In this document: positions 1,639 through 48,441 of the stretch, piece after piece
How the letters are laid out: every line of letters begins with the position of its first letter
How positions within the stretch are numbered: position 1 is the first letter of the stretch
Virus record (IMG/VR): IMGVR_UViG_3300031555_003522
Coordinates: 96,001-160,000 of that record
From: a virus
Taxonomy: Duplodnaviria > Caudoviricetes
DNA: 64,000 bases
Reading direction: 5' to 3' (one strand)
Position numbers and translations under genes: made by a program
The notes under the pieces: generated by a model
Told to the model about the DNA's origin: nothing
Database searches by the model: none
What the model saw: the letters and a program-made list of their open reading frames with translations, nothing else

Positions 1639-2632
1639 CAAGTCGAGCACAATGATGAATATCTTATATCAGTTAAAGAAGTATAATCGTGACTATAAAA
1701 CAAAAGACCCGACGAAGAGACCATGTATCGTATTATTGACAATGGAGAATACAGTTATAGAGTCTATTGATCGACTCTTTAATATGGCTACAGGTCATAA
1801 GAGGATGACGGATTACTCTCCTGAGGGAGCAATGAGAATGTTCAGAGAAGAGGGTGAGCTATATCTAACGGATGAATCTCCGATAGATATCATCATCAAA
1901 TTTGAACCTTCTAATTCTGTGGACACAAGTTATCTATATACTCTTACCGAAGATCTTGAAGATCAAGGTATGGAAGTAATAGCACTATTCCAGGATTATA
2001 TTGGCCGTATTCGTTCAACTGAACGGCTCCAAGAAACTCGTTTGGAATATGGTGCAATTGTTGATGAGTTTAAAACATTTGCTGAGATTAAAGATATTCC
2101 TGTAATAACTGCTGCTCAGCTAAACAGAGATGCTTCTAAGCATATAGATGAAGGTCGTAAAGCCAGTAAGTCCGATCTTGTTAGACTTATTGGTAGATCT
2201 AATATTAGTGAGTCTATGTTGATCCTGAACAATATCGATGCAGGATTCCTGATAGCTCCAGAAACTACTCAAACAAATGAAAGATATCTTGGTGTACAAA
2301 GAATAAAAATTAGATATGATGCTGGAGATAGAGAATTTGTATACTTGCCATTTGTCGGCGATACACTAAAGCTAGAGGAAGATTTTGGAAGGGTTGCCGT
2401 ATTTAAGACAACTATGAAAAATGATCCCTTTGGTGGACAAATTGGCACAAATAAATCTCAGTATCAAACTAATACAATTATGGATCTTGGCCAGGTTATG
2501 AGATCTTCCGGAAATGAGAATAATATGTTCTCGGCCAAGGTCATGAGTGGATCTATGGATACTTTAGCAAATAAAAGTTCCATGGTATTCACAGAACTTG
2601 TTGAACCAATTATATTCGATGATGTTGTATAA
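1634..2632 (+). CDS. dnaB: DnaB-like replicative helicase, 3' exon
   Basis: In-frame (E)GKS Walker A remnant just upstream of ATG 1652; LTME, FQDYI (Walker B), ITAAQLNR, ISES motifs. Confidence 0.88.
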   Translation, partial: EGKSSTMMNILYQLKKYNRDYKTKDPTKRPCIVLLTMENTVIESIDRLFNMATGHKRMTDYSPEGAMRMFREEGELYLTDESPIDIIIKFEPSNSVDTSYLYTLTEDLEDQGMEVIALFQDYIGRIRSTERLQETRLEYGAIVDEFKTFAEIKDIPVITAAQLNRDASKHIDEGRKASKSDLVRLIGRSNISESMLILNNIDAGFLIAPETTQTNERYLGVQRIKIRYDAGDREFVYLPFVGDTLKLEEDFGRVAVFKTTMKNDPFGGQIGTNKSQYQTNTIMDLGQVMRSSGNENNMFSAKVMSGSMDTLANKSSMVFTELVEPIIFDDVV

Positions 2633-2635
2633 ATA

Positions 2636-2680
2636 AAATAGGCTAGAGGTTGAATCCTCTAGCCTATTTATTTTTTTTTT
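2636..2680. terminator. Bidirectional intrinsic terminator
   Basis: AAATAGGCTAGAGG-loop-CCTCTAGCCTATTT plus T-run, between convergent genes. Confidence 0.85.
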
Positions 2681-3095
2681 AATCTTTTTTATCATTATAA
2701 AATGATATAGCTTTAGCTTCAGAATTATATATATGGCTTATTAAAGATGACATATGATCTTTTCTAAGCATTTTAAGTCTCGGCTTAGTAAACTCTTTTA
2801 CATCTGCCATATCATTTAAGAGAAGTATTATAAAGTATAGTTCCGGATTACCATAGATATCATAGCATAAGACTTTAGGCTTATAGAAATATGCCCACTG
2901 TTGTGCCTCAGTAAGTTCAACGGTAACACAAGCATTTTTAAGCTCAGCTAAATAATCATTTACAACATTCAATACGGTAACCCAAGTTCCATTACTTATT
3001 TTATCTACAAAAGATAGATCCATATAATCTATACTAACGCTTTTACCAGATTCGATAAATTCCTCTATAGTCGTTGTTTCTTGAGGTAAAGACAT
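2679..3095 (-). CDS. LysM-like baseplate wedge protein (T4 gp53-like)
   Basis: Motif YKPKVLCYDIYGNPELYFIILLLN. Confidence 0.65.
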   Translation of the reverse strand: MSLPQETTTIEEFIESGKSVSIDYMDLSFVDKISNGTWVTVLNVVNDYLAELKNACVTVELTEAQQWAYFYKPKVLCYDIYGNPELYFIILLLNDMADVKEFTKPRLKMLRKDHMSSLISHIYNSEAKAISFYNDKKD

Positions 3096-3231
3096 CTCAA
3101 AGGCCTCGCTTCCTATAATTATTAATCCTATGGGGAACTATTATTTAATTAATAGTTCGGGCTTACTCAATTATATTACAGTTCTTGGGTGTTGTAGCCC
3201 AAGAACTAATTTTATTTAGAGGTATTAAACT

Positions 3232-3699: not shown

Positions 3700-3702
3700 G
3701 CT

Positions 3703-4911: not shown

Positions 4912-4921
4912 GTGGATTTAT

Positions 4922-5509
4922 ATGTCTAATGAAGATAAAAAGCTAGTACAACCTATTATATTTAATGATGAGAATACTAGCAAACAAGACGAAAATGCTA
5001 AACTTATAAGACCAATAATTTTCGATGCCCCGACTAAGGACGTTGAAGAAAAGACGTATATCATTCTATACAATATAGATCCAGAAGATGATATGGATGA
5101 AATATATAGTAGAATTTTCTCTGTATGTATAGGAAGAACAGATGCATATTTCGATATTAAAGAAAAATTAACCTCTGGACTTGGCGTGAATATTTACACA
5201 TCTAAAGTTATTACAGAGACTAAGCAGACTGAAACAGAGAGTGGGGATACGAAGTATTATCTTCTTCCTTATGATGAATGTGTGAATATTTATGCATTCT
5301 GTACTGGTATCCAATCATTTTATGGAGAAGATGGTTTTGATATAAATGATTATGTCAATAATGGTTCTCCCGATGATAAGGATGATATGGAGAATAATAC
5401 ATTCTTTCTAACTCCAGAGCAGAAGGCTTATAGAGCTATGATAGATGAAGCTATGAATATGCGAAGAAGTACTAATAACCCGCAGTCTAATGACAATCCT
5501 ACTGTATAA
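4922..5509 (+). CDS. Acidic hypothetical protein with two N-terminal PIIF motifs
   Basis: 195-aa ORF; VQPIIFND and IRPIIFD. Confidence 0.8.
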   Translation: MSNEDKKLVQPIIFNDENTSKQDENAKLIRPIIFDAPTKDVEEKTYIILYNIDPEDDMDEIYSRIFSVCIGRTDAYFDIKEKLTSGLGVNIYTSKVITETKQTETESGDTKYYLLPYDECVNIYAFCTGIQSFYGEDGFDINDYVNNGSPDDKDDMENNTFFLTPEQKAYRAMIDEAMNMRRSTNNPQSNDNPTV

Positions 5510-5530
5510 AAATAATATAAGATTTGATCA

Positions 5531-9352: not shown

Positions 9353-12300
9353 ATGGCTAAGCCTACTAAGAATAATGAAGCCACAAATTTTGAAGAAAGC
9401 ATTCGTAGTTATGGTGATAAGATCGAACACATTGATACCTTTGTAGAAGCTGTGCGCCGATTCCCGGGTATGTATATCGGTGCAAAAAGTGATACTGGTT
9501 GGAAGGCATGTGGTCGAGAAATTTTCCAGAATGCTGTTGATGAGATTATCCGTGTAGAATCTCCTTGTCACTACGTAAAGATGAGTTTTGATGAAAGAAC
9601 TCAAGCTGTGGTAGTAGAAGATACTGGACGCGGTATTCCTCATGGTAAAATTATTGAAATCTATGCTAGTCAGCATACTAGTTCTAACTATTCCAAGAAA
9701 CCCGGTGAGTATACATCTGGTGTTCATGGTGTTGGCTCTGGTGTTGCTATGGCATTATCAAAATCTTTTGATATCTATTCGTACGTGCTTGGTGAAGCTA
9801 GGCATGTACATTTTGATTCTGGTGTATTATGGCCTGAAGGGGAAAAGGTTATTCCTTGTCCTGAGGGCAGACAGGGAACTACTGTTGTCATGACACCAGA
9901 CCTTGATGTATTAGACGAAGTAAATCTTACTTGCGAAGATTTCCTTGATCTAGTATTGAAGGTATATCCTCTTGTCAATGTCGGTGATAGAATAGATTTT
10001 ACCGGTATTGATAGAGATGGTAAAATCAAGTATCAGGAAGAATTAGTGAATAAGGATGGTATTATATCATCTCTTATGGTTAGAACTCAAGCTCCTCTTG
10101 TAACACCAGTACAGTTTAAAGATGATACTGGTTACATGAAAGCTGAGATCGCCTTCACTTATGACTCAAGTGATTTAACGTCTGTAGAAGATATTGTAAG
10201 TTATGCAAACTTTACACCTACAACTGGCGGCACGCACGTTGCTGGTTTTATGGATGGTGTGTGTAACTTCTTCCGAAACTACATGAACAAGATTTATCTT
10301 GGTGAGAAGTCTAAAGTTTCTGTGGTAAATAATGATGTCAAGACAGGTCTTAAAGTCATTATTGCAGCTGCTCATCTGAATCCTGTATTTGCGGGTCAGT
10401 TTAAGGGCATTCTGTCAAATGAAGATATGTATAAATATATCAAAGATCTGACTATGAAATCTTTGGAAGAATGGTCTAAGACGAGTCCTGGTGATTTGCA
10501 AAAGATTTGCAAGTTCATCAAGGAGATTGCTGAGATACGAATGAAGAGTGATGATAGTAAGATCAAGCTATCTAATAACTATGAAGCGAGTTCTCTTACT
10601 GGTAAGCCAAAGAAATATGTCCCACCCTCTGGACATAAAAATCTGGAGTTGATTATTGTAGAGGGTGATTCTGCATTAGGTTCTACTAAGAATAGTAGAG
10701 ATACTGCAACGCAAGGCGTATTCCCTGAAGTGGACGGGGCATTGACTAGTAATAGTCAATCGTAAACTTCCTTAATTGCTGGGATGCTAAGTATTATATG
10801 AAAGCCTTAGAAACTTTTATATAATATATGCTAATCAGCAGCCAAGTAGAAATCGGAAGTGATGCACTATGTATAATCCAATTATCTTTAATAATGAAGA
10901 GTTTAAAGATATAGTAATTCCAAATGTTAAACCGATATATTCTGTAAGCAATTATGGTACTATAATTAATAAAATAACCGGTGAGCAGATTAGCATGCAA
11001 ATTACAAGTGATGGATATTTAAGAGTGGGTTTATCGTGTTTAAATGGTAATACCAAACACTTTCTTGTCCATAGATTAGTATTAATGGCATTTTGTCCAA
11101 TACCTAATCCTGAATCGTTCGAGGGAAATCATCTTAAAGGAATAAAGATAGATAATAGGGTAGAGGAATTAGAGTGGACAACCACGTTAGAGAATAATCA
11201 TCATTCTTTTGATACGGGGTTGAATAATAATATACGAGAAAATCATGCAAAAGCTAAACTCACCAATGATCAAGTTCATTTAATATGTCAATGCTTAGAA
11301 AAAGGAATGACTATTAAAGAGATAGAACCTTTGATTATAGATACAGGATGTATAGATCTTGGAAGAAATATAAGAGCTATACGAGAAAGAAAAGCATGGG
11401 TTACTATAAGTAAGGATTATTCGTTTAGTAGCAGAAACAATAGAGATATGTTTTGTGATGATGAAGTTAGAATTATCTGTAAAATGATAGAAGCAGATGC
11501 CGGATATAAGAATATTTTAATATCATTAGGAATAGATATTTCTACTTTATCTTCAAAAGAGCTAGCAAATTATTGTGATATAATAAGTAATATTAGAGTG
11601 GGTAAATATTACTCAGATATATCTAAGGATTTTGATTTTTCAAAATCAAAGTTATTTAGACATGACCAAACTTTAGATAATGATAAAATAACTAAAGTGT
11701 GCAAATGTTTAGAATCTGGTATGAGTAGTACTGAGATACTAAATAAGCTTAATATATCAAAAGAATCCGTAGGTTATGAGAAATATGATAAAAGTCGACG
11801 GATTATAAATAAAATTAGAGCTAGAAAAGCATTCATTTCAATCTCTAAAGATTATGATTTCTAAAGGTTCAACGACTATCGAAAGGTATCTTATGATGAA
11901 CCGAGTAGAGTAGAACTCAAGCGAGTTTCGAAATGGGAAGGATCCATATAAATGGATCGTGATATAGTCTCATCTGTATGGAAACATACAGCAGTTCATA
12001 AGAGAACGGTATAGAAGTAGCGACTCTATATGAAGATATTGATCCGTGGTAAGTTGCCTAATGCATTTAAAACATCTAAAACATCTTTCTTAGCAAATCA
12101 AGAAATTGCTTCCATTATCACAATTATTGGTTGTGGATATGGTAAGAATTTTGATATAACTAAGTGTAAATTCGATAAGATAATTTTCTTAGCAGATGCG
12201 GATCCGGATAAGGTTGTGAGCTGTCCGGCTTAATAGAAATATTAAGAAAATAACTCTCTTAATTGCTGGAATATCTTAAAAATTGAGACAATCAGCAGCG

Positions 12301-14756: not shown

Positions 14757-15194
14757 ATGATTTATAAAAATGAAGTAGATTTAATTCTTAAAGAAAACAA
14801 TTTCAAAATCGAGAATTTTAATGGAAGCGGTAATAGAATAGTAATACATCTGTTATCAGGAAGGGGCAGAAGTTTACCTCATGGACCTAGAATGAAAATT
14901 ATTCTTGGAGGAAGCACTACTGGATATTTTGAAATAAGACAACATACCGGAGAAGTAGTATATGATAAGAAATATTCTGATTTGAGTGCTAGTGAATTAT
15001 CCAATATACTTCCTGTTATAGAAGATATATCATATGGTTGCTATAGGGCTATAACAGCGTATTTCTATTTTGGCTCTTATAAAAGTGATTTGGAAGAGGC
15101 CTTACAAAGAATAGGATCTGCTAATAGATCTGAAAGAAAAAGATTAGCTAAAGAATATAGAGAAAGGTTTAGTAATATATCATATGAAAAATAA
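14757..15194 (+). CDS. HGPRxK-motif small protein (cassette 2, gene A)
   Basis: AAGGAG RBS before ATG 14757; paralog of 13629. Confidence 0.85.
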   Translation: MIYKNEVDLILKENNFKIENFNGSGNRIVIHLLSGRGRSLPHGPRMKIILGGSTTGYFEIRQHTGEVVYDKKYSDLSASELSNILPVIEDISYGCYRAITAYFYFGSYKSDLEEALQRIGSANRSERKRLAKEYRERFSNISYEK

Positions 15195-15873
15195 AAATTT
15201 AATATACATGCCTAAAGGCTGTATTTTTGGATGTAAATATTTTCATGAATACTCTAATAGTTTAGATAATTTGATAGAATATATAAAGAGTAGAGATACT
15301 TTATATTATCTCGGAGTTCCATTTCATGTAATATCTATATTTAATCCTAATCAGTCTGGTATGGTAACGAGATTCGAGTATAATTCTATACACGAATTAA
15401 GAATGAATATATCCGTATTTTGTAGGTATCGTGAATTGATAGTGTCGCCTAAATTTGATGAAGTATACGAAGAAATATGCTATTTTGAATATGAAAAAGA
15501 GCCGACTGTTGGAAGAGAAGAGAATATATCTTCATTTGATTTAGGCTTGATCTACGATCAATATCCTATTCCAGAAACTGGATTGGTCAAATTATGTGGG
15601 TTTGAAAATGCATCTGATTGGCCTATGCCTATGGAGAATAATTTTTACGGAATCGGATATCTATACGGAATATATGGAATGGAAGATCAGACAGGAATTT
15701 ATTCTGGGCTTGATTTAAATATAGGATGTTCTGTATATCCATATTCTATAAATAAAAATATGGAACCTATTTCATTTGAAGAAGCAGCAACTTTTACTAT
15801 TCCAATCGCTTTATTAAACTCAGATCCGGATGAGGTAAAAACACAACAGATTAAAGAATCATGTATTGAATAA
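15184..15873 (+). CDS. Hypothetical protein (cassette 2, gene B)
   Basis: Shares IYxPxGxIF, YRxLIxS..DEV..EIC, SFDxG.xY..YP and T.P.ALL with 14041. Confidence 0.85.
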   Translation: MKNKNLIYMPKGCIFGCKYFHEYSNSLDNLIEYIKSRDTLYYLGVPFHVISIFNPNQSGMVTRFEYNSIHELRMNISVFCRYRELIVSPKFDEVYEEICYFEYEKEPTVGREENISSFDLGLIYDQYPIPETGLVKLCGFENASDWPMPMENNFYGIGYLYGIYGMEDQTGIYSGLDLNIGCSVYPYSINKNMEPISFEEAATFTIPIALLNSDPDEVKTQQIKESCIE

Positions 15874-28274: not shown

Positions 28275-29171
28275 ATGTATAACCAAAACCCGCACTATAT
28301 CGTTCCTTTTCAAGATCTTATGCAACAGACACAGCAACATCCTGCTCCTCAGTCAACACTTATTCAGCCCAGCCTTGATGAGCTTAATAAAACTTTTTTC
28401 AAGAATAAGTTAGCCAGCAATCAGCTTAATGAGTATGAATTGGCTAGTCTTATTAAGAATAATATCGAGACTATGGCTGATGATATTCTTGGCGGCGATC
28501 AGTTCTATAGCCCCTATCTCATGAATCCTTCTTTTGTTAAGGCATTCATTAGAGCAATTTCTTCTATCCCTATTGGATATAAGGAGAGATTGCTCTGTAA
28601 TAAAATAGTCTATGACTACTTTACGTTTGATAATCCTGATAGATCTCTTAAAGAGCAATACTTGTCTATGGCAAGAATTGTAAATCAGGACATCATTCAT
28701 AGGCTCCAGAGTATTGGGGTTGATGAAAATACCGCATGTAATCTCGCTCTTGCAAGATATTCTTCTAAGAACGAAAAGACAAATGTTAAGCGCCTAAACT
28801 TCGTTATCTATCATAAGGATCCTGAAATTATGACAGAGCAGCGTGTTGTATGGATTTATGAGAAGCTTTTCGCTCCTCATATGAATGATCTATTTCAAGC
28901 AACAATGTTTGAGGTATATCCGCCTATCCAGCAGCAAGAGTTTGGTGAAAACTTTATGGAAGTCTATGGTGTAGTCGGACTTGCAGTTCTTTGTATTCTG
29001 AACAATATGAAGTCCGATGATATTCGTAGAATTCTTATTGGATATCATTCCGAATGGGAATATAAAGGACATCCGGAAGTGAGATTTGGCCTACGATCCT
29101 TGAGTGAGGATTATTCCAGAATTGCAAGAATGGTTGAAATGCTTCATCAGCAGGGTATTGATATCCCCTAA
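28275..29171 (+). CDS. Hypothetical protein
   Basis: 298-aa ORF with RBS and terminator. Confidence 0.85.
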   Translation: MYNQNPHYIVPFQDLMQQTQQHPAPQSTLIQPSLDELNKTFFKNKLASNQLNEYELASLIKNNIETMADDILGGDQFYSPYLMNPSFVKAFIRAISSIPIGYKERLLCNKIVYDYFTFDNPDRSLKEQYLSMARIVNQDIIHRLQSIGVDENTACNLALARYSSKNEKTNVKRLNFVIYHKDPEIMTEQRVVWIYEKLFAPHMNDLFQATMFEVYPPIQQQEFGENFMEVYGVVGLAVLCILNNMKSDDIRRILIGYHSEWEYKGHPEVRFGLRSLSEDYSRIARMVEMLHQQGIDIP

Positions 29172-31041: not shown

Positions 31042-31125
31042 TAAAATCTAGATTGAGAATATATTATAGATCTGATGAGAATCATACTCTCATCAGATCT
31101 AATTATTCAGAAGGAGAAACTTGAT

Positions 31126-33333
31126 ATGGCTTCTATGGATTTAATGAATCAGATCCGCCGAGTTAGTGTTCAGAAAGAAGATCATATGCTCGGTAAGGGT
31201 CTTCAAATGCCATTTGCGGCATCAAACTCCGGTAGTAGAAAACTGATGTTTGGAACACAGCTTGAACACAGACTTCCTCTTTTAAATCCGGAGGTTCCGT
31301 TTATTCAAACTGGTTACGAAATGGAGTTCGGTAAATACTCCTCTTCTTATATTACCGCCAAAGAAGATATGACTGTTGTGGGAATTGTTTCAAAATTCTC
31401 TTGGAAGCCTCAGCATCACTATTATATCTTCTGTATTGGAAATGAGACCAAAACTCTGTATATGTTTGAACGTAGAACGTATAAGCATATCACAGAAAAC
31501 TATGGATACCTTTTCAACAATAATGTTATGGATAGCATGACTATTGGGCAGAAGGTATCTAAAGAACAAGTCATTCAGAGCAGTACATCATTTGACGAAT
31601 ATGGAAATAGAATGGATGGCTGCAATCTTCTCACTCTATATACTGCCTGTGAAGAGACTATGGAAGATGCTATCGTTATATCTGAAAGTGCTTCCAAAAA
31701 ATTAGCTTCTCCTCTTGTTAAGAAAGTGAATATTGTTATTAATGATAACGATATTCCGCTTAATTTGTATGGTACTGCTGATTTCTACAAAGCATTCCCT
31801 GATATTGGAGAGGAAAGTGTTCATAGTACTCTTTGCGGTCTTCGGAGAGAAAAGAAAGAAGAATGTTTGTTCTCTCAGTCTTATGCAAGATTAAGAGAAC
31901 TTACTATTTCTGATGAAAAATATACAGTATCTGGTAGAGTTGTAGACATTAATGTCTATTGTAACTCACCCGATAGACTTGGTGAATATGAATATAATTC
32001 TCAGCTTAAGAAATATTATGATGAGAATCTCAGATTCAGCCAGGAAGTTATTAATGTACTCCATCCATATCTCGATCAGGGATATGCTCCCGAATACGAG
32101 TTACAAAGATTGATATCTATTTGTAATGGAGCACTTAATGGTAAACAATATTTTTCTGAAAGAGTATTCTCGAATATTGTATTAGAAGTTACTCTTATTG
32201 AAGAAATTCCTGTTCTTCGTGGTGATAAACTGTCTAATAGATATGGTGGTAAAGGCATTACCTCCAGAATCAAACCAGATAAGTTTATGCCTAAAACAAA
32301 AGATGGACAAACTGTAGATGTTATTCTCAATATGTGTGGTGTTTATGGACGTGAAAATGCTGGTCAGTTGTTTGAGATTACAGTAAGTTATGTATGTATC
32401 AAACTGCTTGAGTTTATTCAGACAAATACTCTAGACGTCGGAGAATGTATAAATCTATATTTAACGCTTTTGAAAATAGTGGCGCCATCTATGGTTTCTT
32501 ATATGGAAAATATGTTCTCATCTATGGATGAAGATGAGTGTATTAGATATATTGGAAATATTTTGTCTAGCGAGAAATCTATTTATCTTGTCATTGAACC
32601 TATGACAGAAAATATGACTATCGATAAAGTAGCAGAACTTTATGAAGCATTTAGCTGGATAAATCAGGAAAAGATGTTGATGCCTATCGTAGACTCTATG
32701 GGAGAAGTAAATTATATTCCGTCTAGACGTCCTATGGTTTATGGATATCAATATATCTATAGATTGAAACAGTATGCAGAGGAAAAGTTCTCCGTTACCT
32801 CACTATCTGCAACCAATATTAGAAATGAGAATAGTAAATCAAAGAGTTCTAATAACTATAAAGCTCTATATTCCCGCACTCCTATTAGATTCGGCGACAT
32901 GGAAACGGGAAATTTAATCCATCTTGGAGCTGAGCTAGTTGTTCAGATGCTTATGCTTTATTCTACATCTCCTAATGCAAGACGTCTTACAGCAGAAATG
33001 CTTACAGGAGATCCTTTCAATATTGATGTAAAACTCGATGATAATTCTACAAATAGAAATGTAGAAATCCTTAATGTGTATCTGAAGACAATGGGTCTAA
33101 AGATTACATTTAAGAAGATTCCCAAAGAAATTAATCATCCTATTCTTATTCAACCAATCACCTTTACCGATCCTAAAGAACACTATGGATCACCTATCAT
33201 ATTCCAGCATCCTGATGAGAAATTCTCTATAGAAGCTGAAGTAGAACGTTTGGTTAATGAGGAAAATGCACCCAAGCATCCTATAGAAATCATTCCCATT
33301 GATTTCCTTAGTGATCTTGAGCCATTTGAATAA
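31126..33333 (+). CDS. rpoB: RNA polymerase beta, C-terminal half (probably non-virion RNAP)
   Basis: SRKLMF, TGYE, MEDAIVISES, GDKLSNRYGGKG, VILN..R.N.GQ, YRLKQ, RFGDME; AAGGAG RBS before ATG 31126. Confidence 0.93.
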   Translation: MASMDLMNQIRRVSVQKEDHMLGKGLQMPFAASNSGSRKLMFGTQLEHRLPLLNPEVPFIQTGYEMEFGKYSSSYITAKEDMTVVGIVSKFSWKPQHHYYIFCIGNETKTLYMFERRTYKHITENYGYLFNNNVMDSMTIGQKVSKEQVIQSSTSFDEYGNRMDGCNLLTLYTACEETMEDAIVISESASKKLASPLVKKVNIVINDNDIPLNLYGTADFYKAFPDIGEESVHSTLCGLRREKKEECLFSQSYARLRELTISDEKYTVSGRVVDINVYCNSPDRLGEYEYNSQLKKYYDENLRFSQEVINVLHPYLDQGYAPEYELQRLISICNGALNGKQYFSERVFSNIVLEVTLIEEIPVLRGDKLSNRYGGKGITSRIKPDKFMPKTKDGQTVDVILNMCGVYGRENAGQLFEITVSYVCIKLLEFIQTNTLDVGECINLYLTLLKIVAPSMVSYMENMFSSMDEDECIRYIGNILSSEKSIYLVIEPMTENMTIDKVAELYEAFSWINQEKMLMPIVDSMGEVNYIPSRRPMVYGYQYIYRLKQYAEEKFSVTSLSATNIRNENSKSKSSNNYKALYSRTPIRFGDMETGNLIHLGAELVVQMLMLYSTSPNARRLTAEMLTGDPFNIDVKLDDNSTNRNVEILNVYLKTMGLKITFKKIPKEINHPILIQPITFTDPKEHYGSPIIFQHPDEKFSIEAEVERLVNEENAPKHPIEIIPIDFLSDLEPFE

Positions 33334-33437: not shown

Positions 33438-35735
33438 ATGCTTAATAAATTAAAAACAATTCTTAATTCCCTTTTAGAAGGAAGCCTAGAATATCTGACT
33501 GTTGATAATATTACACAAGTATCTCAAGAAGCAGTTAGAATTATTCAAAAGCCCGAGCCATTAGATCAGTATGATGTAATGTGTATGGGTATTATAATTT
33601 CTATTAGTCAGATCGTCTATAATAATACAGATAGATCTATATTATTCTTAGATGATGGCGTTTATGACCTACTGCTTGAAAGATATCGTGTATATAATGA
33701 AAACTTTCAAGTTGGAGCACCGGTTATAAACTTCAATCAAAACGGAGAAGAAACAAAAGAAATCGAATATTCTGAACCTATTAGTTTCATCTCGGATGAT
33801 CCTCAAAAGTTTATAGATAATAGTCTATATTATAATGACTTATCTAAACATCCGCCACTGGACTTGAGGCTATTTCCTCAAATCGATAGAAATTCTGGAG
33901 TATTAATATCAAAGAAGAATGTGAGTGTTCCTCACATGTATCCTAAGCTTGTTGGATCTTTAGATAAATGCAAGTTCACTTTGGATAATGAAGCTATTGA
34001 ACGCGGAGTGTATAATGATCCTTCTGTAAAGATCTTTGAACGAGATTTTCTTGCAAAGCATCTTAGAATGGGTCTTATTGATATGGCTACCCCATTTGAA
34101 TTAATAGCTGAATTAAAGTACGATGGCGTATCTGTAGAGGCTGATGTTACTCATGAAATATTGAGTGCAAGATCCAGAGGAGACGCCAATAATGATCTTG
34201 CAGCAGATATGTCTGAAATCTTTAGAGGATATCGTTTCCCTTATGCAGAGGTATTGCCTAAAGAAGAAGCTTTTGGCATGAAGTTTGAGGCCATCATGTC
34301 TTATGCGGATTTAAATGTAATGGCCGAGCTTAGAGGTAAAGACTACAAGAATAGTCGTAATGGTATCATTGGATTACTCGGTGCATCTGATGCATATAAT
34401 TTCAGAGATCTTATAACTCTTGTACCTCTTGCTACTTCATTTGAAGGTATTGATAGAGTTACAGAAATAGAATTTCTTAATAAGTATTACCATTCTGGAG
34501 AATATCTCAGATATTCTATTCTGCGTGGAACTTATGTAGATATCCTGTATCAAGTATATCAGTTTGTTAAAGAAGCTGAGACTATGAGATCATCTTTACC
34601 TTTTATGTATGATGGAGTAGTTATCTCTTATAGAGATCCGAAGATTATAGAGGCTTTGGGTAGAGAGAATTCTATCAATAAATATAGTATGGCTATCAAG
34701 TTTAATCCATTGGTTAAAGAAACTACCTTTATTGGATACAGCTATACTGTTGGTCAGGATGGAGTAATTACTCCTATGATTCATTATAATGCTGTAGAAT
34801 TCTATGGAACTATTCACACAAAATCTAGCGGTCATTCTTATAAGAGATTTATGGATCTTGGATTGGCTAAGGGCGATGTCATCCAGGTAGAGTATACTAA
34901 TGATGTAATGCCTTATGTAACAAAACCTAGGGTATCTAAAAACTTCATTAATAGAAATCCTCCTATTCCATTCCCGGAGTTCTGTCCTTATTGCAACACC
35001 AAGATTATCATTCATGAATCTGGAAGATCTGCCACATGTCCCAATATGAATTGTCCAGATAGAGTGGTATCTAGAGTTGCTAATATGGCTGCTAAATTAG
35101 GTCTTAAGGATTTTGGAGAAGAGACTTTTAGACGCCTTGGAACCAGATCTCTGACAGAGATGTTCAATTACACCTATGACGATCTTGCAATACTTGGGCC
35201 TTTAAACGCCGAAAAGCTACTGAGTAGAATAAATGAGCTCAAAACAACACCAATATATGATTTTAAAGCCATCGGTGCTATTGGATTTACAAGTGTTGCT
35301 ATTGAAACATGGAAGAAGATCCTCAATGTATTACCGTTTGCAAGAATTATTACAGATTCTGATGCAGATCTTTATGATGATCTTGTATCTATTAAGGGTA
35401 TTGGCCCAAAGATTGCTGAGACAATAGTAAATGAAAGAGTCTATTTAAAGGACGACATTAATTCTATTTTCTCTATGCCGAATATTGTATCCTCCCTTGG
35501 AATGAAAGCAAGTAAAGTTATAAGATTCACTGGCTGTAGACCAGATGACGACTTGTATAACTATCTTTGTTCAAGAGGCTGTGATGCAAATAAGGACGGA
35601 AGTGTGACTAAGAATACAGACGTTCTTGTTGTTCCCTATATTGGGTTTACTTCATCTAAAACAAGTAAAGTTGGTTTAGGTACAAGAGTTGTAGACATGG
35701 TCGCATTCAGAGCAAATCCTGACATGTATTTATAG
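33438..35735 (+). CDS. ligA: NAD-dependent DNA ligase
   Basis: ELKYDG, SRGD, YDGVV, AIKF, TVGQDGVITP, CPYC..CPNMNC, HhH, BRCT-like end. Confidence 0.93.
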   Translation: MLNKLKTILNSLLEGSLEYLTVDNITQVSQEAVRIIQKPEPLDQYDVMCMGIIISISQIVYNNTDRSILFLDDGVYDLLLERYRVYNENFQVGAPVINFNQNGEETKEIEYSEPISFISDDPQKFIDNSLYYNDLSKHPPLDLRLFPQIDRNSGVLISKKNVSVPHMYPKLVGSLDKCKFTLDNEAIERGVYNDPSVKIFERDFLAKHLRMGLIDMATPFELIAELKYDGVSVEADVTHEILSARSRGDANNDLAADMSEIFRGYRFPYAEVLPKEEAFGMKFEAIMSYADLNVMAELRGKDYKNSRNGIIGLLGASDAYNFRDLITLVPLATSFEGIDRVTEIEFLNKYYHSGEYLRYSILRGTYVDILYQVYQFVKEAETMRSSLPFMYDGVVISYRDPKIIEALGRENSINKYSMAIKFNPLVKETTFIGYSYTVGQDGVITPMIHYNAVEFYGTIHTKSSGHSYKRFMDLGLAKGDVIQVEYTNDVMPYVTKPRVSKNFINRNPPIPFPEFCPYCNTKIIIHESGRSATCPNMNCPDRVVSRVANMAAKLGLKDFGEETFRRLGTRSLTEMFNYTYDDLAILGPLNAEKLLSRINELKTTPIYDFKAIGAIGFTSVAIETWKKILNVLPFARIITDSDADLYDDLVSIKGIGPKIAETIVNERVYLKDDINSIFSMPNIVSSLGMKASKVIRFTGCRPDDDLYNYLCSRGCDANKDGSVTKNTDVLVVPYIGFTSSKTSKVGLGTRVVDMVAFRANPDMYL

Positions 35736-36540: not shown

Positions 36541-37203
36541 ATGTCTTTAGTAAAGGCTAAAATAGGTGAAACCATCTATGATGTAGTCAGCTACGAAGAA
36601 TATTATAGAAATATGTCACTATATCCAGCAGCATATACTGCTATTAGATATGGTGATGGGTATATATATCCCATTAGACCTCTGTCTGACTATAGACCTG
36701 GCGCATATATGACAGGATGTTTGGATGTTTTTAAACCTCCTACGACTGCTACAGAATGCGCTATGTATAGTGAACAGAATATCATAGATTTCACTAAGGC
36801 TGAAGGTATGAGAGATCTCATAACCTGTAGCCAGATGCTCAATGCCGCAGAGAGATCTATTCTTACAAATATAGACAACCTATTTATTCCCGATATTGGT
36901 GAGAATGATACTCCTGAAATGCAGGCTCTTAAACAGGCGATTATTGCAAAGCATATAGATCTCGATAAGTATGAACCTCGGTTTGGCCCTAATTATAATA
37001 ATGATAAGAGACTTCTGAGGAAGGATAGAATCACATTTGATAAATTCCGTACAATTGGTGAATGTTTGGATATTAAGGCAACTTTAACCATTGAAGATGC
37101 TAACCCTGATGTTCCTAATCCTATTGGACGAGCTATTAGTGTAGAAATTACTGGCCGTCCTATGTCTATCGATGGCGATGGTGAAGTGGAGGTACAGGAA
37201 TGA
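36541..37203 (+). CDS. Hypothetical protein
   Basis: Probable start ATG 36541; ATGA-coupled to the next gene. Confidence 0.8.
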   Translation: MSLVKAKIGETIYDVVSYEEYYRNMSLYPAAYTAIRYGDGYIYPIRPLSDYRPGAYMTGCLDVFKPPTTATECAMYSEQNIIDFTKAEGMRDLITCSQMLNAAERSILTNIDNLFIPDIGENDTPEMQALKQAIIAKHIDLDKYEPRFGPNYNNDKRLLRKDRITFDKFRTIGECLDIKATLTIEDANPDVPNPIGRAISVEITGRPMSIDGDGEVEVQE

Positions 37204-38975
37204 ATCAACGTGAAGCCATTGCTGGTTTTATAAATGAAAACCGAGCAAAATTTAATCCGTTATTCTTTCAAAGAGATGAAGATGAAATCATCAAAGAATT
37301 GATGAATGTAATTAAATCTTGTGAAAGAGATAATAAGTATTTTACTATTAAAGTACAATCATATAGAATCATTGATGATTATGATGAAATCAATCAGATT
37401 CTCTTTGATTATTATGAGAGTACTACAAAAAATAAATCCAAGGCTAAGAAACGAGACAATCAATATGGATTTATTAATCTTAATGAGTCTTATATTAGAC
37501 TCTTGATTGTGACTTATTATGTCAAGGATAGTAAAGAGGATGGTACAATTGATGTTGTGATCGCTGTACCTAGAATTATTGATAGATACTATTTCAAGAT
37601 TAATGGAATTATGAGATCCACTCTGTTCCAGATAGTCGATGGTAGTACCTATAATAATGGTACTTCTAATGCTAAAACTCCTAGTATTACTCTTAAGATT
37701 ATCTTTATGGCAACAAGAGTTACAAGATATTTCTTAAGTGTAAAAACAACTGAAGGAGACGAATTAAAGCTTACACATTATTACTCTCGTATCTTTAGTA
37801 AGGGTGTGAGCGCTGCAAAATATATATTTGCAAAGTTTGGCTTCTTAGGAGGATTAGATTTCTTCGGTCTTGCAAATGGATCTATCTTTATTACCAAAAA
37901 TGATCCTTGTGATACTAGCCTATATACCATTCAGTTACAGAATGAATGTTATATAAATAGTCCTAAAATGATTCTTGATAATAATGTGCTTGTACAATCT
38001 GTTATAGCAACACTATATCAAAATATCATTCCTTCTATGGATTATGAGACTATCTTTGATCCTGTTTTCTGGGTAAGAAGCCTTGGAGTAGAATTTAGTG
38101 GTGGCGGAGCCGAAAGACTTGCTGCTATTATGGATCCTGAAGATGATACCGTTACAGATACCTACGATAAAGGTTGTAGCATTCTTGATTCTTTCGAATC
38201 TATATATGATATCAGTACAAGAGAGTCTATTAAGCTCCCTGAAGAAGATAAAGCTACCACTTATCATATTCTTAGATGGATTATGAGAGAATTTAATGCC
38301 CTCAGAGTAAAGGATAATCTTGACATTAGTTGTAAGAAAATTCGATTCGCTGAGTATATTGCATCTCTCTATGCGTTTAAGATCGCTAAGGGTATATATC
38401 GTGTATCTGATATGAATAAGAAGGCTAGTATATTAAGCATTCGTAAAGCTATTAGAACCGATCCGAATTTCCTTTTAGCCGCTATAACCAAATCTAAAAT
38501 GGTATCTTATCGTAATATGGTTAGCGATATGGATTCTATGCAAGCCCTTAAATTCACATATAAAGGTGTATCTGGACTTGGAGAGAATTCTAATCAGTCT
38601 ATTCCTGATATTTATCGTTCTATTCATCCTAGTCATATAGGAAGAGTAGACCTTGATGCGTCTTCTGATGGTAATCCTGGTATTACTGGAACAATCTGTC
38701 CTTTCGCATCTATCTATGACGGCTTCTTTGAAGATTATCAGGAGCCTAATAGCTGGGAACAGGATTTTATGTCTGTAATGGATGACTATAAGAAAGCTAC
38801 CAATTTGAAAGATGCTATGATCTTTGAAGAAAAAATTCTTGGTACGGATAGACATGAAGATATAGAAGCTACCTCTGAAGTCATCGCTACGATGCAACAA
38901 ATCATTAAACCTGTTCTTTTTGCAGATCAGGGAGAGATTGTTTCATTGGAGGATGTTTATAATGGCAGCTATTAA
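37200..38975 (+). CDS. rpoB: RNA polymerase beta, N-terminal half
   Basis: YFKING..FQIVD and RSIHPSHIGRVDLDASSDGNPGITG (beta RDVHPTHYGRVC..EGPNIG). Confidence 0.85.
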   Translation: MNQREAIAGFINENRAKFNPLFFQRDEDEIIKELMNVIKSCERDNKYFTIKVQSYRIIDDYDEINQILFDYYESTTKNKSKAKKRDNQYGFINLNESYIRLLIVTYYVKDSKEDGTIDVVIAVPRIIDRYYFKINGIMRSTLFQIVDGSTYNNGTSNAKTPSITLKIIFMATRVTRYFLSVKTTEGDELKLTHYYSRIFSKGVSAAKYIFAKFGFLGGLDFFGLANGSIFITKNDPCDTSLYTIQLQNECYINSPKMILDNNVLVQSVIATLYQNIIPSMDYETIFDPVFWVRSLGVEFSGGGAERLAAIMDPEDDTVTDTYDKGCSILDSFESIYDISTRESIKLPEEDKATTYHILRWIMREFNALRVKDNLDISCKKIRFAEYIASLYAFKIAKGIYRVSDMNKKASILSIRKAIRTDPNFLLAAITKSKMVSYRNMVSDMDSMQALKFTYKGVSGLGENSNQSIPDIYRSIHPSHIGRVDLDASSDGNPGITGTICPFASIYDGFFEDYQEPNSWEQDFMSVMDDYKKATNLKDAMIFEEKILGTDRHEDIEATSEVIATMQQIIKPVLFADQGEIVSLEDVYNGSY

Positions 38976-40581: not shown

Positions 40582-40926
40582 ATGGCTGCAAATAAACCAT
40601 ATGACATAACTCCGATTCCTCAAGAACCTATAGAAGAAGGACTTATAAATCCTATTATCTTTAATAGACCCGATATGTGCCCAAATTGTAAATCGCAAAA
40701 GGTAGAGCTTATGAGCTTTAATAACTATCCTCAAGGATATAATGGAGCCGTAGATGCTTTTCTATCTGGTTACTTGGTAACATTCGATAAATATGAGATA
40801 AGAAGTATGAGATGTAAGTCCTGTACTAAAGAATTTGTTATCGATTGGGCTGAGGGATTCCCAAAACCCTTAAGAGACACAGATAAAAGTAATATTTTCT
40901 TTATGGAATTTCTTGCAGGTATATGA
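40582..40926 (+). CDS. Zn-ribbon protein
   Basis: CPNC..CKSC; NPIIFN motif. Confidence 0.8.
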   Translation: MAANKPYDITPIPQEPIEEGLINPIIFNRPDMCPNCKSQKVELMSFNNYPQGYNGAVDAFLSGYLVTFDKYEIRSMRCKSCTKEFVIDWAEGFPKPLRDTDKSNIFFMEFLAGI

Positions 40927-43803: not shown

Positions 43804-44120
43804 GAGGAGAAGCTGCGTCCGCCCATATAAAATAACGCCTTTGGAATTACCCCACCTCAGCATGTTTTGGCAGAGGTTGATTTCCATTTGAGTTTTACAC
43901 TCTAACGCCGTATTTTATACGCACCTTCTTCTGACATAGCGGCTCGGGTCCTATACGATATATTTGCCACTTTATATTATCGGTAGGATCGAGCATGTGC
44001 TGGTTTCTCAATTGTCCATATGGCGATCTCCTATGTATGTTACCTTCGTGATGCTTGCGGTAAAATAAAAGTGGCAAAAGTATCCCCCGGCGTAAATGGC
44101 GCCGGGGGATATTCTTTTTT
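43804..44120 (+). ncRNA. Candidate structured ncRNA D (~315 nt) with pseudoknot
   Basis: AACA-N6-TG at 43793; GC-rich; stems 43807-43818/43919-43930, 43826-43833/43911-43918, 43942-43953/43983-43994; loop TTTGCCACTTT (43963-73) pairs with AAAGTGGCAAA (44068-78); terminator 44081-44120. Confidence 0.8.
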
Positions 44121-45078
44121 AATATTCATTCATTATATTATTTCCGTCTAATACAAGAGGCCATACCTGATTGATATTTCTATTTCTTGCTATCTGAGTA
44201 TGAATATCAATTGTAGTATCCTCTAATAAGAAATTATCTGGTCTAGGATAATTAGGAATACTAGCACCAGTAGTCGTATCGATTACGTCAAAACAACGCT
44301 GACCAGTAGCCTGATTATATCTAACTACAGTCTGTACATTAGGATTAGATTCCATACGCATTCTAGCCTGTTCCGGACTCAGTCCATTAGGAGTAATTCC
44401 ATTATTGGCAACCATCTCTACACCAGAAACGCCAGCGGCAGGATTATTTACACCAAGAGTGATATCCTGAATACTAGGAGCAGGAGGTGTATAAACGCCA
44501 ACAGGAGTATTTACAAATGCAGAATAGATATCCATCATCTTCATATCATCATTAGCTTCACTCTTATCCATTTTGAGAGTCTTAAATCTATTAAGATTAA
44601 GATTATGGGCCTGAGTAATAGTGCTGTTAAGTTCTTTAATAGCAGAGATCTTGGTGGATAATAAAGCACTAGCAGATGCTGTTAAATTAGTAAGGTAAGT
44701 GTATTTACCTTTAATAGTTTTGCTAGCGCGAATCTCATCAATATCTCCTTTAATAGCTGCACTCATTTCGTCAGCCTGGACTATAGCACCGCGTAAAAGA
44801 TTATTGGTTTCAGAGTACGAAGTGTGATAGTTTGTCTCTGCTATATCTGCACCGGGTACAGGATTTATCATTCCATTTATACCCAATTGATCTTCAGGAA
44901 TAACTGTGACACTAGCTTTCTTCTTTTTCTTGGATTTGGGATCAGGATCTACTGGTAAAGATGATGCTTCTTCAGAAGTAAAGAAACTAAAATCAACACC
45001 AATACTATCATTATCATTATTGGCTTCCGGTATGCTTTGTGCAATCATACCACCAAATAAAGAAGAGATCTGTTCCAT
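44119..45078 (-). CDS. Hypothetical protein
   Basis: GGAGG RBS before ATG 45078; late-type promoter upstream. Confidence 0.85.
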   Translation of the reverse strand: MEQISSLFGGMIAQSIPEANNDNDSIGVDFSFFTSEEASSLPVDPDPKSKKKKKASVTVIPEDQLGINGMINPVPGADIAETNYHTSYSETNNLLRGAIVQADEMSAAIKGDIDEIRASKTIKGKYTYLTNLTASASALLSTKISAIKELNSTITQAHNLNLNRFKTLKMDKSEANDDMKMMDIYSAFVNTPVGVYTPPAPSIQDITLGVNNPAAGVSGVEMVANNGITPNGLSPEQARMRMESNPNVQTVVRYNQATGQRCFDVIDTTTGASIPNYPRPDNFLLEDTTIDIHTQIARNRNINQVWPLVLDGNNIMNEY

Positions 45079-45155
45079 TATATAAACCTCCATTATTTTT
45101 TTTTAATTATTAAGATGTTTAAGGTAATACTTTACGACATCACAAACATTATTTT

Positions 45156-45256
45156 AATCCTTAAAGGATTAGAAATCGCTCATAACGACTTTTTGATCTG
45201 CCCTGTGTATTTGAAAATATAGCCACGCTTCTGCCGGAGCGTGGCTATATTCTTTT
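45156..45256 (+). ncRNA. Candidate sRNA E (~100 nt), antisense to the translation start of gene 35852
   Basis: AACA-N6-TA at 45145; 5' hairpin 45155-45171; linker 45178-45214 complementary to 35826-35857; terminator 45216-45256. Confidence 0.78.
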
Positions 45257-45348
45257 ATCATGGACAATTGTATATTATAATAGTGCAAAAAACTATTTAT
45301 TAATATCCTAAACGTACGCAATTCTATCGAATTAGGAAGGTGACTCTA

Positions 45349-48300
45349 ATGATTAAAGGTAGAAATCCTGGAGACAATATAACATTGATGAATACAATGT
45401 TTGTTCAAGGGACTGATCCATCTGATGGTAAATTCCATCAAACGATGACATTGGTTTATAAAGATCTTGATAGTGGTCTTAAGCATGTAGAGGAGATCGA
45501 CGATCCTGATTATGAATATTTTATGATTCACCCAGATAAGAGGGTGGATTATAATAGATTATTTGTATCTAAAGACGATGTAGAACGTATTGTAGTTCCA
45601 TATGGATCTTTGGAAAAAGATATAGCTTTGAGGCTTGGATTTAAAGAATTCTATTACGATAATATTCGTACTGGTAATAAAGGTGAGAATAGAAAACTTC
45701 ATATCCATCCTGATCTATTTAATAGTGATATGAATATAGAGGATCACTATAAATTCAGATTTGACAAGATGTATAGAAATGAAACTTGCCCTATAACAAA
45801 AGCATTTTTTGATATTGAGGTTGATAGTATTAATATGATGGGAGACTTCCCAGAACCTGGTGAATGTCCTGTTAATGCTATAACTCTTATTTGCCAAGAT
45901 GTTCATCAAGTATATACATTCTTGTTGAGAACTAAATCCAATCCTCAGATTATTGAATTTGAAAAGCAAGTTAATGACGGCTCTATATTTCCAGAATTAA
46001 CTAATTTCGTTATAGAGGCCGTTGGTGGTCCTCAAGTAGCAGCATCATATGAGATTAATTTTAATTACAATTTCTTATTCTATGATGAAGAAGATGAGAT
46101 TAATCTTATTAAGGATTTATTTGTAGCCATTAATATTCATAAACCAGATTTTGCACTGGCATGGAATATGGGCTTCGACGTTCCGTATATTATTCAGAGA
46201 ATAATAAATCTTGGATATGATCCTTGTGACATAATGTGCCATCAGGATTTTAAACGCAAGATTGTAAAATATATGGTAGATGAGAGAATGAAAAATGAAT
46301 TGGCTGAACGAGGAGATTATGCGGCAATATCTTCTTATACTGTATATCTCGATCAGATGATCCAATTTGCGTCTCGACGTAAAGGACAAAGTAAGTTTTT
46401 ATCATTCTCATTGGATTACATCGGTGAGCATATTGCTGGTGTAAGAAAGCTTGACTATAAAGCTATAACCACGAATATTGCAGAGCTTCCTTATAAATCT
46501 TATAAGACCTTTGTATTCTATAATATAATCGACACCATAGTTCAGTATTGTATTGAGATGAAGACAAAGGATATAGATTATGTATTTGGTAAGGCTCTTT
46601 TAAATAATACAAGATATTCTAAAACCCATAGACAGACTGTTTATTTGACTAATAGAGCTGCTAAAGTTTTTGATGCACAGGGATTTATTATTGGTAATAA
46701 TGCTAATAAGTTTAATAGCAAACCGGATGAAAAATTCCCTGGAGCGTTTGTAGCAGATCCTGAAAAAGTTAATAATACTTCTCGAATGCAAATTTATGGG
46801 TTATTTATAAACTTATTTGACAATTGTGTGGATTTCGATTAAGCAATAGTCGCTTAATTCAGTAATGGATTAAGAAAACTCCCTTAATTGCTGGAAACTC
46901 TAGCAGAAGTGATATAATTGCTTCATCCATATATTATAAATATGGTGCTAGACAATCAGCAGCCAAGAAAAATTGTAAAGGAGACTTTTATCGTGAGAAG
47001 ATATGAGTTCGAAATCCCTATAGATATAATAGATCCATCTATTCTATTGAATGGGGAAAGATTTGAATATATAACAGAAGATATTGTTCCTGGGGTATAT
47101 CCATATTATATGGTATCGAATTGTGGCAGAGTATATCACAGGTATCTTCAATGTATAATGAAACAGGGTTTAGAAACGAGTGGTTATCTATTTATAACTT
47201 TAGCTACTTGTAATGGGCCAAAGATAATTCAAATGAATAGACTAGTCTTAATGACATTTGACCCTAATCCAAATTGCCATGAACTACAAGCAAACCATAA
47301 AGATGGTAATAAGCTTAACAATTATCTCTATAATTTAGAATGGGTAACAAGATCTGAAAATATTATTCATGCATATGAAACTAAACTTCATATACCAAAG
47401 AGCAGTATTTCAGAAGATCAAGCTATTCAAATAGTAGAATTACTAAAAACCAATCAATATCAGTGTAAAGAAATAGCTATTATGATGGGTATTAATGAAA
47501 ATATAGTAAATTCTATTAAGAAAAAAGAATCTTGGAAAAGATTAACTAGAGATTGCAATTTTGATGCTAGACAAGGAAAGTTATATACGGATAATGATGT
47601 TCGTATTTTATGCGAATATTTTCAAAATAATCCAAAATTAGAAGGTCTAGAATCTAAAGCTTATGTACTAGAAGCTTTGATATCTTGTGGATTTGATAAC
47701 CCACAAGATAAAGTAGATACGGCAAGAAAGATCTATTCTAAAAAACATTATACTAGAATTTCTAAAGATTACAATTTTTAAGGTTCAACGACTATCGAAA
47801 GGATAATATGAGAGAAATACTCATATGAATAACCGAGTAGAGTAGAGTTCTAGTGAACTCGAAATGGGGAGCGTCCTATAAACGGTAACAGAATATAGGA
47901 TGATGATATAGTCTAATCTATATGGTGACATATAGCAGCTTACAAGCGGTATAAGATTAACGACCTTATATGAATAAAAATGTTTGCTTCGCTATACCCA
48001 TCTTTGATCCGTCAGTTTAATATAGCAGCTAATACTATTATTGGTAAGCTGATGATTAATGACAAAGTTCATGACAAAGAAAATATTTCTGATATGGATA
48101 ACTGGACTAGAGCTGGTGCATTTATGGAAGATATTCAGTCTCAGCAGTGGCTAGAGTTTACTTCCAGATGGTTTGGACTGCCAGATTATACTGTTCTGTA
48201 TCATGAAGTAGAGAGATTCTTTACGCAGATTGCTAATGCGTATCTCGGTCTTAGGGTCTACGAAAGAGATGGAACTATAGAGCCTATCACATTTGATAAA

Positions 48301-48441
48301 GATGGTCTTATGTGTGAGCCTATTGTATTTGAAGATAACGAAAGAAGAGAGGTTATAGATACCTATATCCCTCAGAATCTAAATAAATGGATGGAGTGGA
48401 GAAATCATGCAATTATGTATCCGAACCAGCAATTTAAATAG
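45349..48441 (+). CDS. polB: Family B DNA polymerase, N-terminal (exonuclease + motif A) subunit; exons 45349-46839 and 47983-48441
   Basis: FFDIEVD (ExoI), AWNMGFD (ExoII), YNIID (ExoIII), FPGAFV; splicing restores DFD|FASLYPS; motifs B and C are absent. Confidence 0.92.
46840..47982 (+). mobile_element. Group I intron of polB with HNH gene
   Basis: P1 CGAU|UA..UAGUCG; P10 AAGCAA with exon UUGCUU; 3' end closely resembles T4 td (GATATAGTCT..ATGGTGACAT..TAAGATTAACGACCTTAT.TGAA..AATG). Confidence 0.95.
46993..47781 (+). CDS. Intron-encoded HNH homing endonuclease
   Basis: YMVSNCGRV, GYL, NRLVLMTF, ANHKDGNKLNNYLYNLEWVTRSEN; AAGGAG RBS before GTG 46993. Confidence 0.9.
   Translation: MRRYEFEIPIDIIDPSILLNGERFEYITEDIVPGVYPYYMVSNCGRVYHRYLQCIMKQGLETSGYLFITLATCNGPKIIQMNRLVLMTFDPNPNCHELQANHKDGNKLNNYLYNLEWVTRSENIIHAYETKLHIPKSSISEDQAIQIVELLKTNQYQCKEIAIMMGINENIVNSIKKKESWKRLTRDCNFDARQGKLYTDNDVRILCEYFQNNPKLEGLESKAYVLEALISCGFDNPQDKVDTARKIYSKKHYTRISKDYNF

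Follow-up and report, generated by a model that had tools for sequence, protein, structure and literature searches.

In bacteriophage T4, the polymerase, the ligase and the two late-transcription factors dock through their clamp-binding motifs onto the hydrophobic patch of each protomer of the sliding clamp gp45 (PMC7892883). A comparable arrangement may operate in an uncultivated jumbo phage with split multisubunit RNA polymerases (RNAPs) of the AR9 type, represented by a single 207,861-bp virus contig (34% guanine plus cytosine (GC); estimated genome completeness 84%), of which bases 96001-160000 form the stretch of 64,000 nucleotides analysed here (the window; positions are those of the window unless marked as genome positions). 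The subject of the analysis is a short peptide of the form P-I-x-F (PI.F) that recurs on proteins of replication and transcription, together with its candidate receptor, a putative sliding clamp encoded by the open reading frame (ORF) at 48407-49207. The likeness to T4 lies in a phage-encoded, two-domain clamp (here by predicted fold) whose best structural match is gp45, in short hydrophobic motifs that polymerase, ligase and transcription machinery carry on their flexible ends or linkers (PMC7892883), and in the potential coupling of replication and transcription through the clamp. The differences are as follows: the putative clamp of the window phage has no sequence similarity to gp45; the consensus is [EQ]-P-[IM]-x-F, hydrophobic upstream and acidic downstream, and occurs at both N-ends and C-ends; subunits of the phage multisubunit RNAP themselves bear the motif (three copies plus one), whereas T4 relies on sigma-like adaptors to the host RNAP; the range of clients is wider, extending to helicases, homing nucleases and an XRE regulator; and Pfam searches found no clamp loader.

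Other known systems share some of these features. The PCNA-interacting protein (PIP) box (QxxLxxFF) and the bacterial beta-clamp motif (QL[SD]LF) likewise involve a ring-shaped hub, a degenerate motif on disordered termini and many clients (including polymerase, ligase, nucleases and helicases), but the consensus differs here, with an obligatory proline, and the genome has no PCNA or beta-clamp Pfam domain. To our knowledge, a proteome-wide, concerted switch of a key residue (I, M, V, L or F) between close lineages is undescribed for PIP or beta-clamp motifs. The tail of the single-stranded DNA-binding protein (SSB; D-D-D-I-P-F) is also a short acidic-plus-hydrophobic peptide that organises many genome-maintenance proteins; there, however, the hub bears the peptide and the clients bear the pockets, whereas here it is the clients that bear the peptide, which runs in the opposite residue order and needs no free Phe at the C-terminus. 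Import in chimalliviruses (Imp1/PicA) handles the same cargo, namely DNA polymerase, helicases, ligase, non-virion RNAP (nvRNAP) and homing endonucleases, but homologs of chimallin, PhuZ and Imp1 were undetected by sequence in the window phage, and published work places AR9-like phages outside Chimalliviridae (PMC13282480). Relative to these tool-belts, the apparent novelties would be the consensus itself, an orphan clamp lineage recognised by predicted fold, RNAP-borne motifs, the broader clientele and the concerted switch.

Enrichment and placement of the motif

Across the 219 ORFs of the whole genome (63,353 amino acids (aa)), with expectations taken from 300 within-protein shuffles, PI.F is found 31 times where 8.0 are expected (Poisson P 6e-10), PIIF nine times against 0.75, and the longer form [EQN]PI[ITVS]F 15 times against 0.35. 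Seven control patterns that are reversed, permuted or altered by one residue (F.IP, IP.F, PL.F, PV.F, PI.Y, PI.L and AI.F) occur at about 1x expectation, and an unbiased scan of all XY.Z patterns places PI.F second, behind the zinc-finger pattern CP.C. The extended consensus reads hydrophobic-hydrophobic-[E/Q]-P-I-[I/T/S/E]-F-[D/N/E]-[D/E], for example TELVEPIIFDDVV. A first-pass annotation, made from the letters of the window alone, had listed such peptides on individual proteins; every one was found at the protein named when the coordinates were rechecked, and the shuffle test bears out an enrichment above compositional expectation. The codons used vary by instance (CCA/CCT, ATT/ATC/ATA and TTT/TTC), which indicates a signal at the level of the protein; a DNA-level motif, such as a promoter or a repeat, was considered and ruled out on these grounds.

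The placement of the motif is as distinctive as its frequency. The median distance to the nearest terminus is 14 residues for the candidate instances, 67.5 for background PI.F and about 51 when positions are drawn at random within the same proteins (none of 2000 simulations gave a value as low as 14). In every annotated carrier the motif falls outside the Pfam and PHROG domain matches, in keeping with the earlier description of the peptide as one mostly of termini or linkers, and the motif-bearing tails that were modelled have a predicted local distance difference test (pLDDT) score below 50 in both fold runs. The proteome is I-rich and AT-rich, about eight PI.F are expected by chance, and about 8-10 of the instances do look like background; yet the extended pattern is 40-fold in excess while the control patterns are flat, the carriers belong to unrelated families, and the change from I to M described below is concerted. 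An origin of the motif in chance, in compositional bias or in descent from one domain common to the carriers is thus effectively refuted.

Concerted replacement of the residue after proline

The window phage was compared with three related genomes (G001, G004 and G005), of which G001 (185 kb) is the nearest relative in IMG/VR, with an RNAP beta that is 68% identical. Relatives of the phage originate from gut metagenomes, one sample being labelled pig gut. None of the three has an excess of PI.F (in G001, 5 observed versus 6.8 expected), and all are instead enriched in PM.F (16 versus ~2-2.6 in G001, 16 versus 3.2 in G004 and 12 versus 2.5 in G005). When every PI.F or PV.F of the window phage genome was placed on the orthologs in these M-type genomes, about 15 orthologous sites proved to be PI.F here and PM.F in the relatives: those of the XRE regulator, the end of the DnaB-like helicase, the ORF at 4922 (two sites), the HNH endonuclease, RNAP betaC (three), the ligase, RNAP beta'C, the SF2 helicase and a 265-aa ORF. 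The motif pair of the exonuclease-half DNA polymerase subunit PolB-N belongs to the same set on separate evidence from PolB-N comparisons. A further 8-10 or so sites within folded domains, a number equal to the chance expectation, do not switch (residue 618 of the portal, residue 603 in the catalytic part of RNAP, gyrB, and the ORFs at genome 17773 and 45152). In the portal-region protein (ORF 49306-51717), PIQF at 51157-51168 (+) is unchanged in both G001 and G005; this copy is background that stands outside the system. In the opposite direction, the tetrapeptide PM.F in NNMPMVF of a 408-aa protein (genome 31780-33006 (-)) keeps its PM throughout the four genomes, even in the I-type one, and serves as an internal control which shows that the switch passes buried sites by.

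The carriers within the window illustrate both the terminal placement and the switch. In the exon-2 ORF of the DnaB-like helicase (1652-2632), LVEPIIFDD (2606-2617 (+)) has its motif at residue 319, four residues from the C-end and well past the domain match, which stops at residue 234 of 326; at this site the G004 ortholog reads LIEPMIFYN. The 195-aa product of ORF 4922-5509, of no known family, carries LVQPIIFND (4952-4963) and LIRPIIFDA (5012-5023; both (+)) at its N-terminus, and its orthologs have two PM.F each (LIEPMIFDED and LINPMEFDV; INPMEFF twice (G004, G005)). An HNH/NUMOD4 homing endonuclease (ORF 10869-11864) carries MYNPIIFNN (10878-10889 (+)) at its N-end, with the motif at residue 4 and ahead of the domains, and an HNH relative in the M-type genome G004 begins with MLIQPMIFEEW. 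The conjecture that the homing endonuclease mimics the tag fits these data, and the occurrence of the lineage-correct form on homing endonucleases suggests that selfish elements plug into the same hub. The nvRNAP betaC subunit (ORF 31075-33333), which matches the AR9 nvRNAP chain 7s00_C at E 1e-82, has a domain ending near residue 680 of 752, followed by a C-tail with three copies (33154-33306 (+)): LIQPITFTD at 33154-33165 (residue 694), SPIIFQ at 33193-33204 (707) and IIPIDF at 33295-33306 (741). All three copies are PM.F in G001. In the NAD-dependent DNA ligase (ORF 33438-35735), YSEPISFIS (33777-33788 (+)) occupies residue 114 of an N-terminal extension, the ligase domains beginning at residue 215, and the site is PM[IV]F in three of three relatives.

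The gene for PolB-N lies directly upstream of the putative clamp gene and required some correction. PolB-N is a separate exonuclease-half subunit that is 649 aa long in intron-free relatives (e.g., homolog P0147), and its gene is split here by an intron of ~1.1 kb. Exon 1 spans 45340-46842 (+) (Pfam DNA_pol_B_exo1; a tblastn search with P0147 covers residues 1-499), the intron contains an HNH ORF at 46918-47781 (+) (Pfam HNH_3/NUMOD4) that is absent from the intron-free loci L054 and L055, and exon 2 spans 47980-48441 (+), with EPITF at 48283-48294 and EPIVF at 48319-48330, ~40-50 residues before the C-end. The peptides described earlier on the C-tail of PolB are present and belong to the C-tail of this separate subunit. 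The family-B DNA polymerase is encoded as two separate halves, and the polymerase half, cut into several pieces, is encoded by the opposite strand at a distance of ~20 kb (genome 163.9-167.8 kb).

Outside the window, the motif is carried by an SF2/ResIII helicase (genome 171993; residue 499 of 506), a PD-(D/E)XK nuclease (genome 68879 (-); residue 124 of 128), the XRE helix-turn-helix regulator (genome 74921; residue 12 of 91) and nvRNAP beta'C (genome 168482, the homolog of AR9 gp153; residue 714 of 739). Several small proteins of no known function are further carriers. Three peptides of the first-pass annotation fare less well. The site IIKPVLFAD in the C-tail of RNAP beta-N (ORF 37200-38975; 38910-38921 (+)) is present but degenerate and doubtful, being only partly conserved (PMIF in G004, PVIN in G001 and G005). 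LINPIIFNR (40651-40662 (+)) in the 114-aa product of ORF 40582-40926 is not kept as a motif in the M-type relatives (PVVT, PIIT and PIKF in the orthologs) and is a lineage-specific or doubtful instance. NMEPISFEE (15766-15777 (+)), near the C-end of the 229-aa product of ORF 15184-15873 (no family), is motif-like and unverified, no ortholog having been found in the three relatives.

Covariation between copies extends this pattern to the wider family, which counts 753 RNAP-beta homologs (E <= 1e-10) and 1516 PolB-N homologs in metagenomes. Almost all of the best 120 of the 753 RNAP homologs have three copies at conserved places in the betaC tail, and the residue after the proline, which by lineage is M (most), I, V, L, F or A, agrees in 60% of copy pairs within a protein, compared with 31% after shuffling (maximum 39% in 1000 shuffles). 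In the set of 120 PolB-N homologs, both copies are conserved in 100+ and their type (M, I, V or F) covaries between the copies. Two betaC homologs (P0058 and P0067) have even lost the near-invariant proline from all three copies simultaneously (AGMSF / QGFSF / AGMSF and NLMTF / DLMSF / SLMSF). Such covariation within a protein is what is expected of a peptide that co-evolves with one receptor pocket and rules out chance and simple shared ancestry.

Taken together, a motif in tails outside domains, conserved at orthologous sites and switched in concert, points to a shared docking peptide. Conservation in orthologs, a check that accompanied the first-pass annotation, has thus been obtained in a particular form, with the motif at the same places and the residue after the proline exchanged. 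The tag is, with high probability, a functional peptide for docking or targeting that a single co-evolving partner recognises. A signal for processing or turnover common to early and middle proteins (a protease cleavage site or degron) would also favor exposed terminal positions and acidic flanks, but it fits poorly with three RNAP copies at conserved spacing, two polymerase copies and a carrier set of DNA-acting proteins only; no phage protease is linked with the motif, which is missing from virion proteins, the substrates that proteases usually have. A signal of this kind is highly improbable.

A predicted sliding clamp as candidate receptor

The candidate hub is the 266-aa product of ORF 48407-49207 (+), whose start overlaps the stop of PolB-N and for which a two-domain sliding-clamp fold is predicted. 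An AlphaFold2 (AF2) model built on 24 homologs has a pLDDT of 91.5 and a predicted template modelling score (pTM) of 0.88. With this model, the top 50 Foldseek matches in PDB are all sliding clamps (African swine fever virus PCNA, E 3e-5, probability 1.0), and an exhaustive VIA-align search of 48,161 PDB representatives returned clamps or herpesvirus processivity factors at all of ranks 1-38, the best being T4 gp45 (6drt_A; Z 8.2, root-mean-square deviation 4.4 over 187 residues; Z 8.7 in a second run). These clamp matches cover residues ~7-266, and the next matches have Z <= 3.6. Clustered at 50% identity, the family resolves into 52 clusters in a set of 1.84 billion representatives, and its proteins are all of ~265 aa. 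The order PolB-N then clamp, with overlapping start and stop, is found here and in 14 of 14 related loci fetched; the overlap is ~35 nt in the window (48407-48441) and 31-47 nt in nearly all relatives, and its conservation suggests that the polymerase subunit and the clamp are coupled in translation. In one relative (L075:4239-5030), a 263-aa ORF unrelated to the clamp occupies the expected place right after PolB-N, which may reflect an insertion or a contig that ends before the clamp.

The clamp is the best candidate for the hub because the carriers are classical clamp clients, because its gene adjoins the motif-bearing polymerase tail, and because AR9 lacks the clamp homolog, the enrichment and the tails alike. 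AR9 shares the RNAP, ligase, helicases and PolB with the window phage, but a profile search that finds the clamp in three relatives found no homolog in AR9, and neither PI.F nor PM.F is enriched there. The AR9 orthologs of betaC, beta'C, beta-N, the ligase and the SF2 helicase are shorter by exactly the motif-bearing tails (e.g., betaC in PDB 7s00_C is without the tail, and the ligase is without ~84 N-terminal residues). The DnaB-like helicase of AR9 (NC_031039.1 3583-5268) ends in ...EKDSGIPF, resembling the bacterial SSB tail D-D-D-I-P-F, and AR9 may use a different terminal tag where the window phage has EPIIF.

In the proposed mechanism, the motif would be a short linear docking motif that proteins acting on phage DNA carry in disordered tails at either terminus, and its receptor would be the phage's own divergent gp45/PCNA-like clamp. 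Once loaded on DNA, the clamp would act as a tool-belt that tethers the polymerase, the ligase, two helicases, nucleases (including homing endonucleases) and the XRE regulator, as well as the non-virion multisubunit RNAP through three betaC copies and one beta'C copy. Transcription would then be coupled to clamp-loaded, replicating DNA, as T4 late transcription is through gp45; for this phage, we infer recruitment of the RNAP by the clamp through the motif. The probability that the tag binds the clamp encoded at 48407-49207 is put at roughly 0.55. Of the common-hub proposal in the first-pass annotation, the docking peptide with a co-evolving partner is well supported, while the identity of the hub is narrowed to the clamp as best candidate.

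Several observations weigh against the clamp as receptor. Its identity as a clamp derives from the predicted fold: the ORF has no Pfam or PHROG match, none of 40 family members examined matches the clamp Pfam families, the family profile has no match among PDB sequences, and no gp45-slide_C, DNA_pol3_beta_3 or PCNA_N domain scores above cut-off in the genome. No DNA_pol3_delta2 match to a clamp loader was found in the whole genome as assembled (the 84% noted above), and AAA matches (in a 776-aa ORF, a PIF1-like helicase and UvsX) are all sub-threshold. The motif fits no known clamp-binding consensus, whether the PIP box, bacterial QL[SD]LF or the C-terminal hydrophobic motif of T4. Of 61 core ORFs, 30 also have no homolog in AR9, which makes the phyletic argument weak. 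Clamp identity between I-type and M-type genomes (46.5%) is close to that among M-type genomes (47.7%), with no extra divergence on the I branch; in a relative-rate comparison the four genomes are roughly equidistant (clamp ratio 0.97).

A search for clamp residues that follow the motif type drew its pairings from 12 ENA/Logan look-ups and a scan of JGI metagenomes that gave 3 loci. Column 255, 11 residues before the C-end, is Ser in eight of eight I-type genomes and in one of 13 M-type genomes; it was the best column of an association scan over 22-26 clamps (S versus Q; raw P 4e-4), and four further pairs agreed. Against it, the association is not robust to correction for ~266 columns and for phylogeny, and Ser is shared by two sister clamps of different type, L072 (I) and L073 (M). 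I-type genomes fall on at least 2-3 distinct branches of the clamp tree, and the association with motif type is suggestive only. Complex prediction for three clamp copies and the betaC tail (residues 683-752), run without controls, gave an interaction score (ipSAE) of 0.08-0.09 against a mark of 0.32. In a tethered AF2 run, the PolB-N tail was fused to the clamp by reading through into the clamp frame via one four-letter word (GAGT=E; P0146), with the clamp alignment only (PolB-N tail fragments, misaligned into the clamp, were dropped); the clamp was modelled at pLDDT ~90, and the tail stayed below 50 and paired with itself. Neither run speaks for or against binding.

The evidence of co-evolution requires a partner that co-evolves and does not specifically require a clamp. 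Another phage receptor, such as a replisome or transcription scaffold, an SSB-like protein, or a receptor for targeting or import into a replication compartment, is possible, although less likely. The XRE regulator and the small proteins of no known function are explained equally easily by a targeting signal, and 29 other core ORFs are absent from AR9, several of them function-unknown and in the replication region (e.g., window 28275-29171, window 44119-45093 (-) and genome 173598-175472). For the first two of these, the ESM Atlas returned only unnamed viral clusters, or nothing. On the other side, no chimallin, PhuZ, Imp1 or SSB match was detected: phmmer searches of the G000 and G001 proteomes with phiKZ gp54, gp39 and gp69 returned nothing better than E-values of 0.19-0.87, and neither tubulin nor SSB Pfam domains matched, with the limit that sequence searches can miss very divergent chimallin shells. 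The earlier suggestion of a phage-nucleus import factor as the hub accordingly finds no support, and the clamp is the sole protein of a known hub fold found so far, adjoining the motif-bearing polymerase tail. More specific still, and unlikely, are two versions in which the tag is a phage "nuclear localisation signal" into the replication compartment, or in which the three betaC copies engage the three protomers of a trimeric clamp; the latter is compatible with binding to the clamp.

A host protein (beta-clamp, SSB or RNA polymerase) could also be the docking site, with the I, M, V and F variants tracking hosts. The host beta-clamp is known to be exploited by phages for transcription or inhibition (Mu MuC appeared in one of the searches, and the Gp168-beta-clamp structure, PDB 7evp, among the fold matches), and lineage-wide switching could track host switches. 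The motif nevertheless does not fit the beta-clamp consensus Q-L-[SD]-L-F, the hydrophobic residues of the motif lying at positions 3 and 5 and not at 4 and 5; the phage has its own clamp gene beside its polymerase; and the related clamps of L072, L073, L076 and L079 accompany four motif types, which suggests fast co-evolution within the phage and not conserved host pockets. Docking onto a host protein is very unlikely. These four loci constitute one clamp clade (support 99/98) with motif types I, M, V and F, and they offer a compact natural experiment for mapping the residues that determine specificity.

Surrounding features and significance

Two features of the wider locus stand apart from the motif. 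Between 52000 and 64000 in the window, GC climbs from ~0.33 to values of 0.40-0.47, and both strands carry long, overlapping ORFs; the ORF at 62802-63842 (-) has many tail-fibre and sheath PHROG matches via short repeated stretches, and the region looks like a repeat-rich, glycine-rich fibre region, not foreign DNA. At one relative (L074:4847-5401), a 184-aa gene with a Spo0A_C domain directly follows the clamp, a hint that endospore-forming Firmicutes are the hosts of at least some members of the phage family.

Should the tag indeed bind the clamp, sequence alone would reveal the clamp interactome of gut jumbo phages that make up a large, uncultivated family, an orphan family (the 52 clusters, at present unannotated) would gain a function as a new sliding-clamp lineage, and the idea of clamp-activated transcription known from T4 would extend to phages that have their own multisubunit RNA polymerase. 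Engagement of three clamp protomers by the three betaC copies, if true, would mean that such an RNA polymerase is directly clamp-driven, without a sigma-like adaptor, and a targeting signal, if true, would indicate targeting in a jumbo-phage family without a recognisable chimallin. The concerted switching of the residue provides a rare natural experiment on the co-evolution of a hub with all of its clients, and the switching lineages offer ready-made orthogonal pairs of peptide and receptor.

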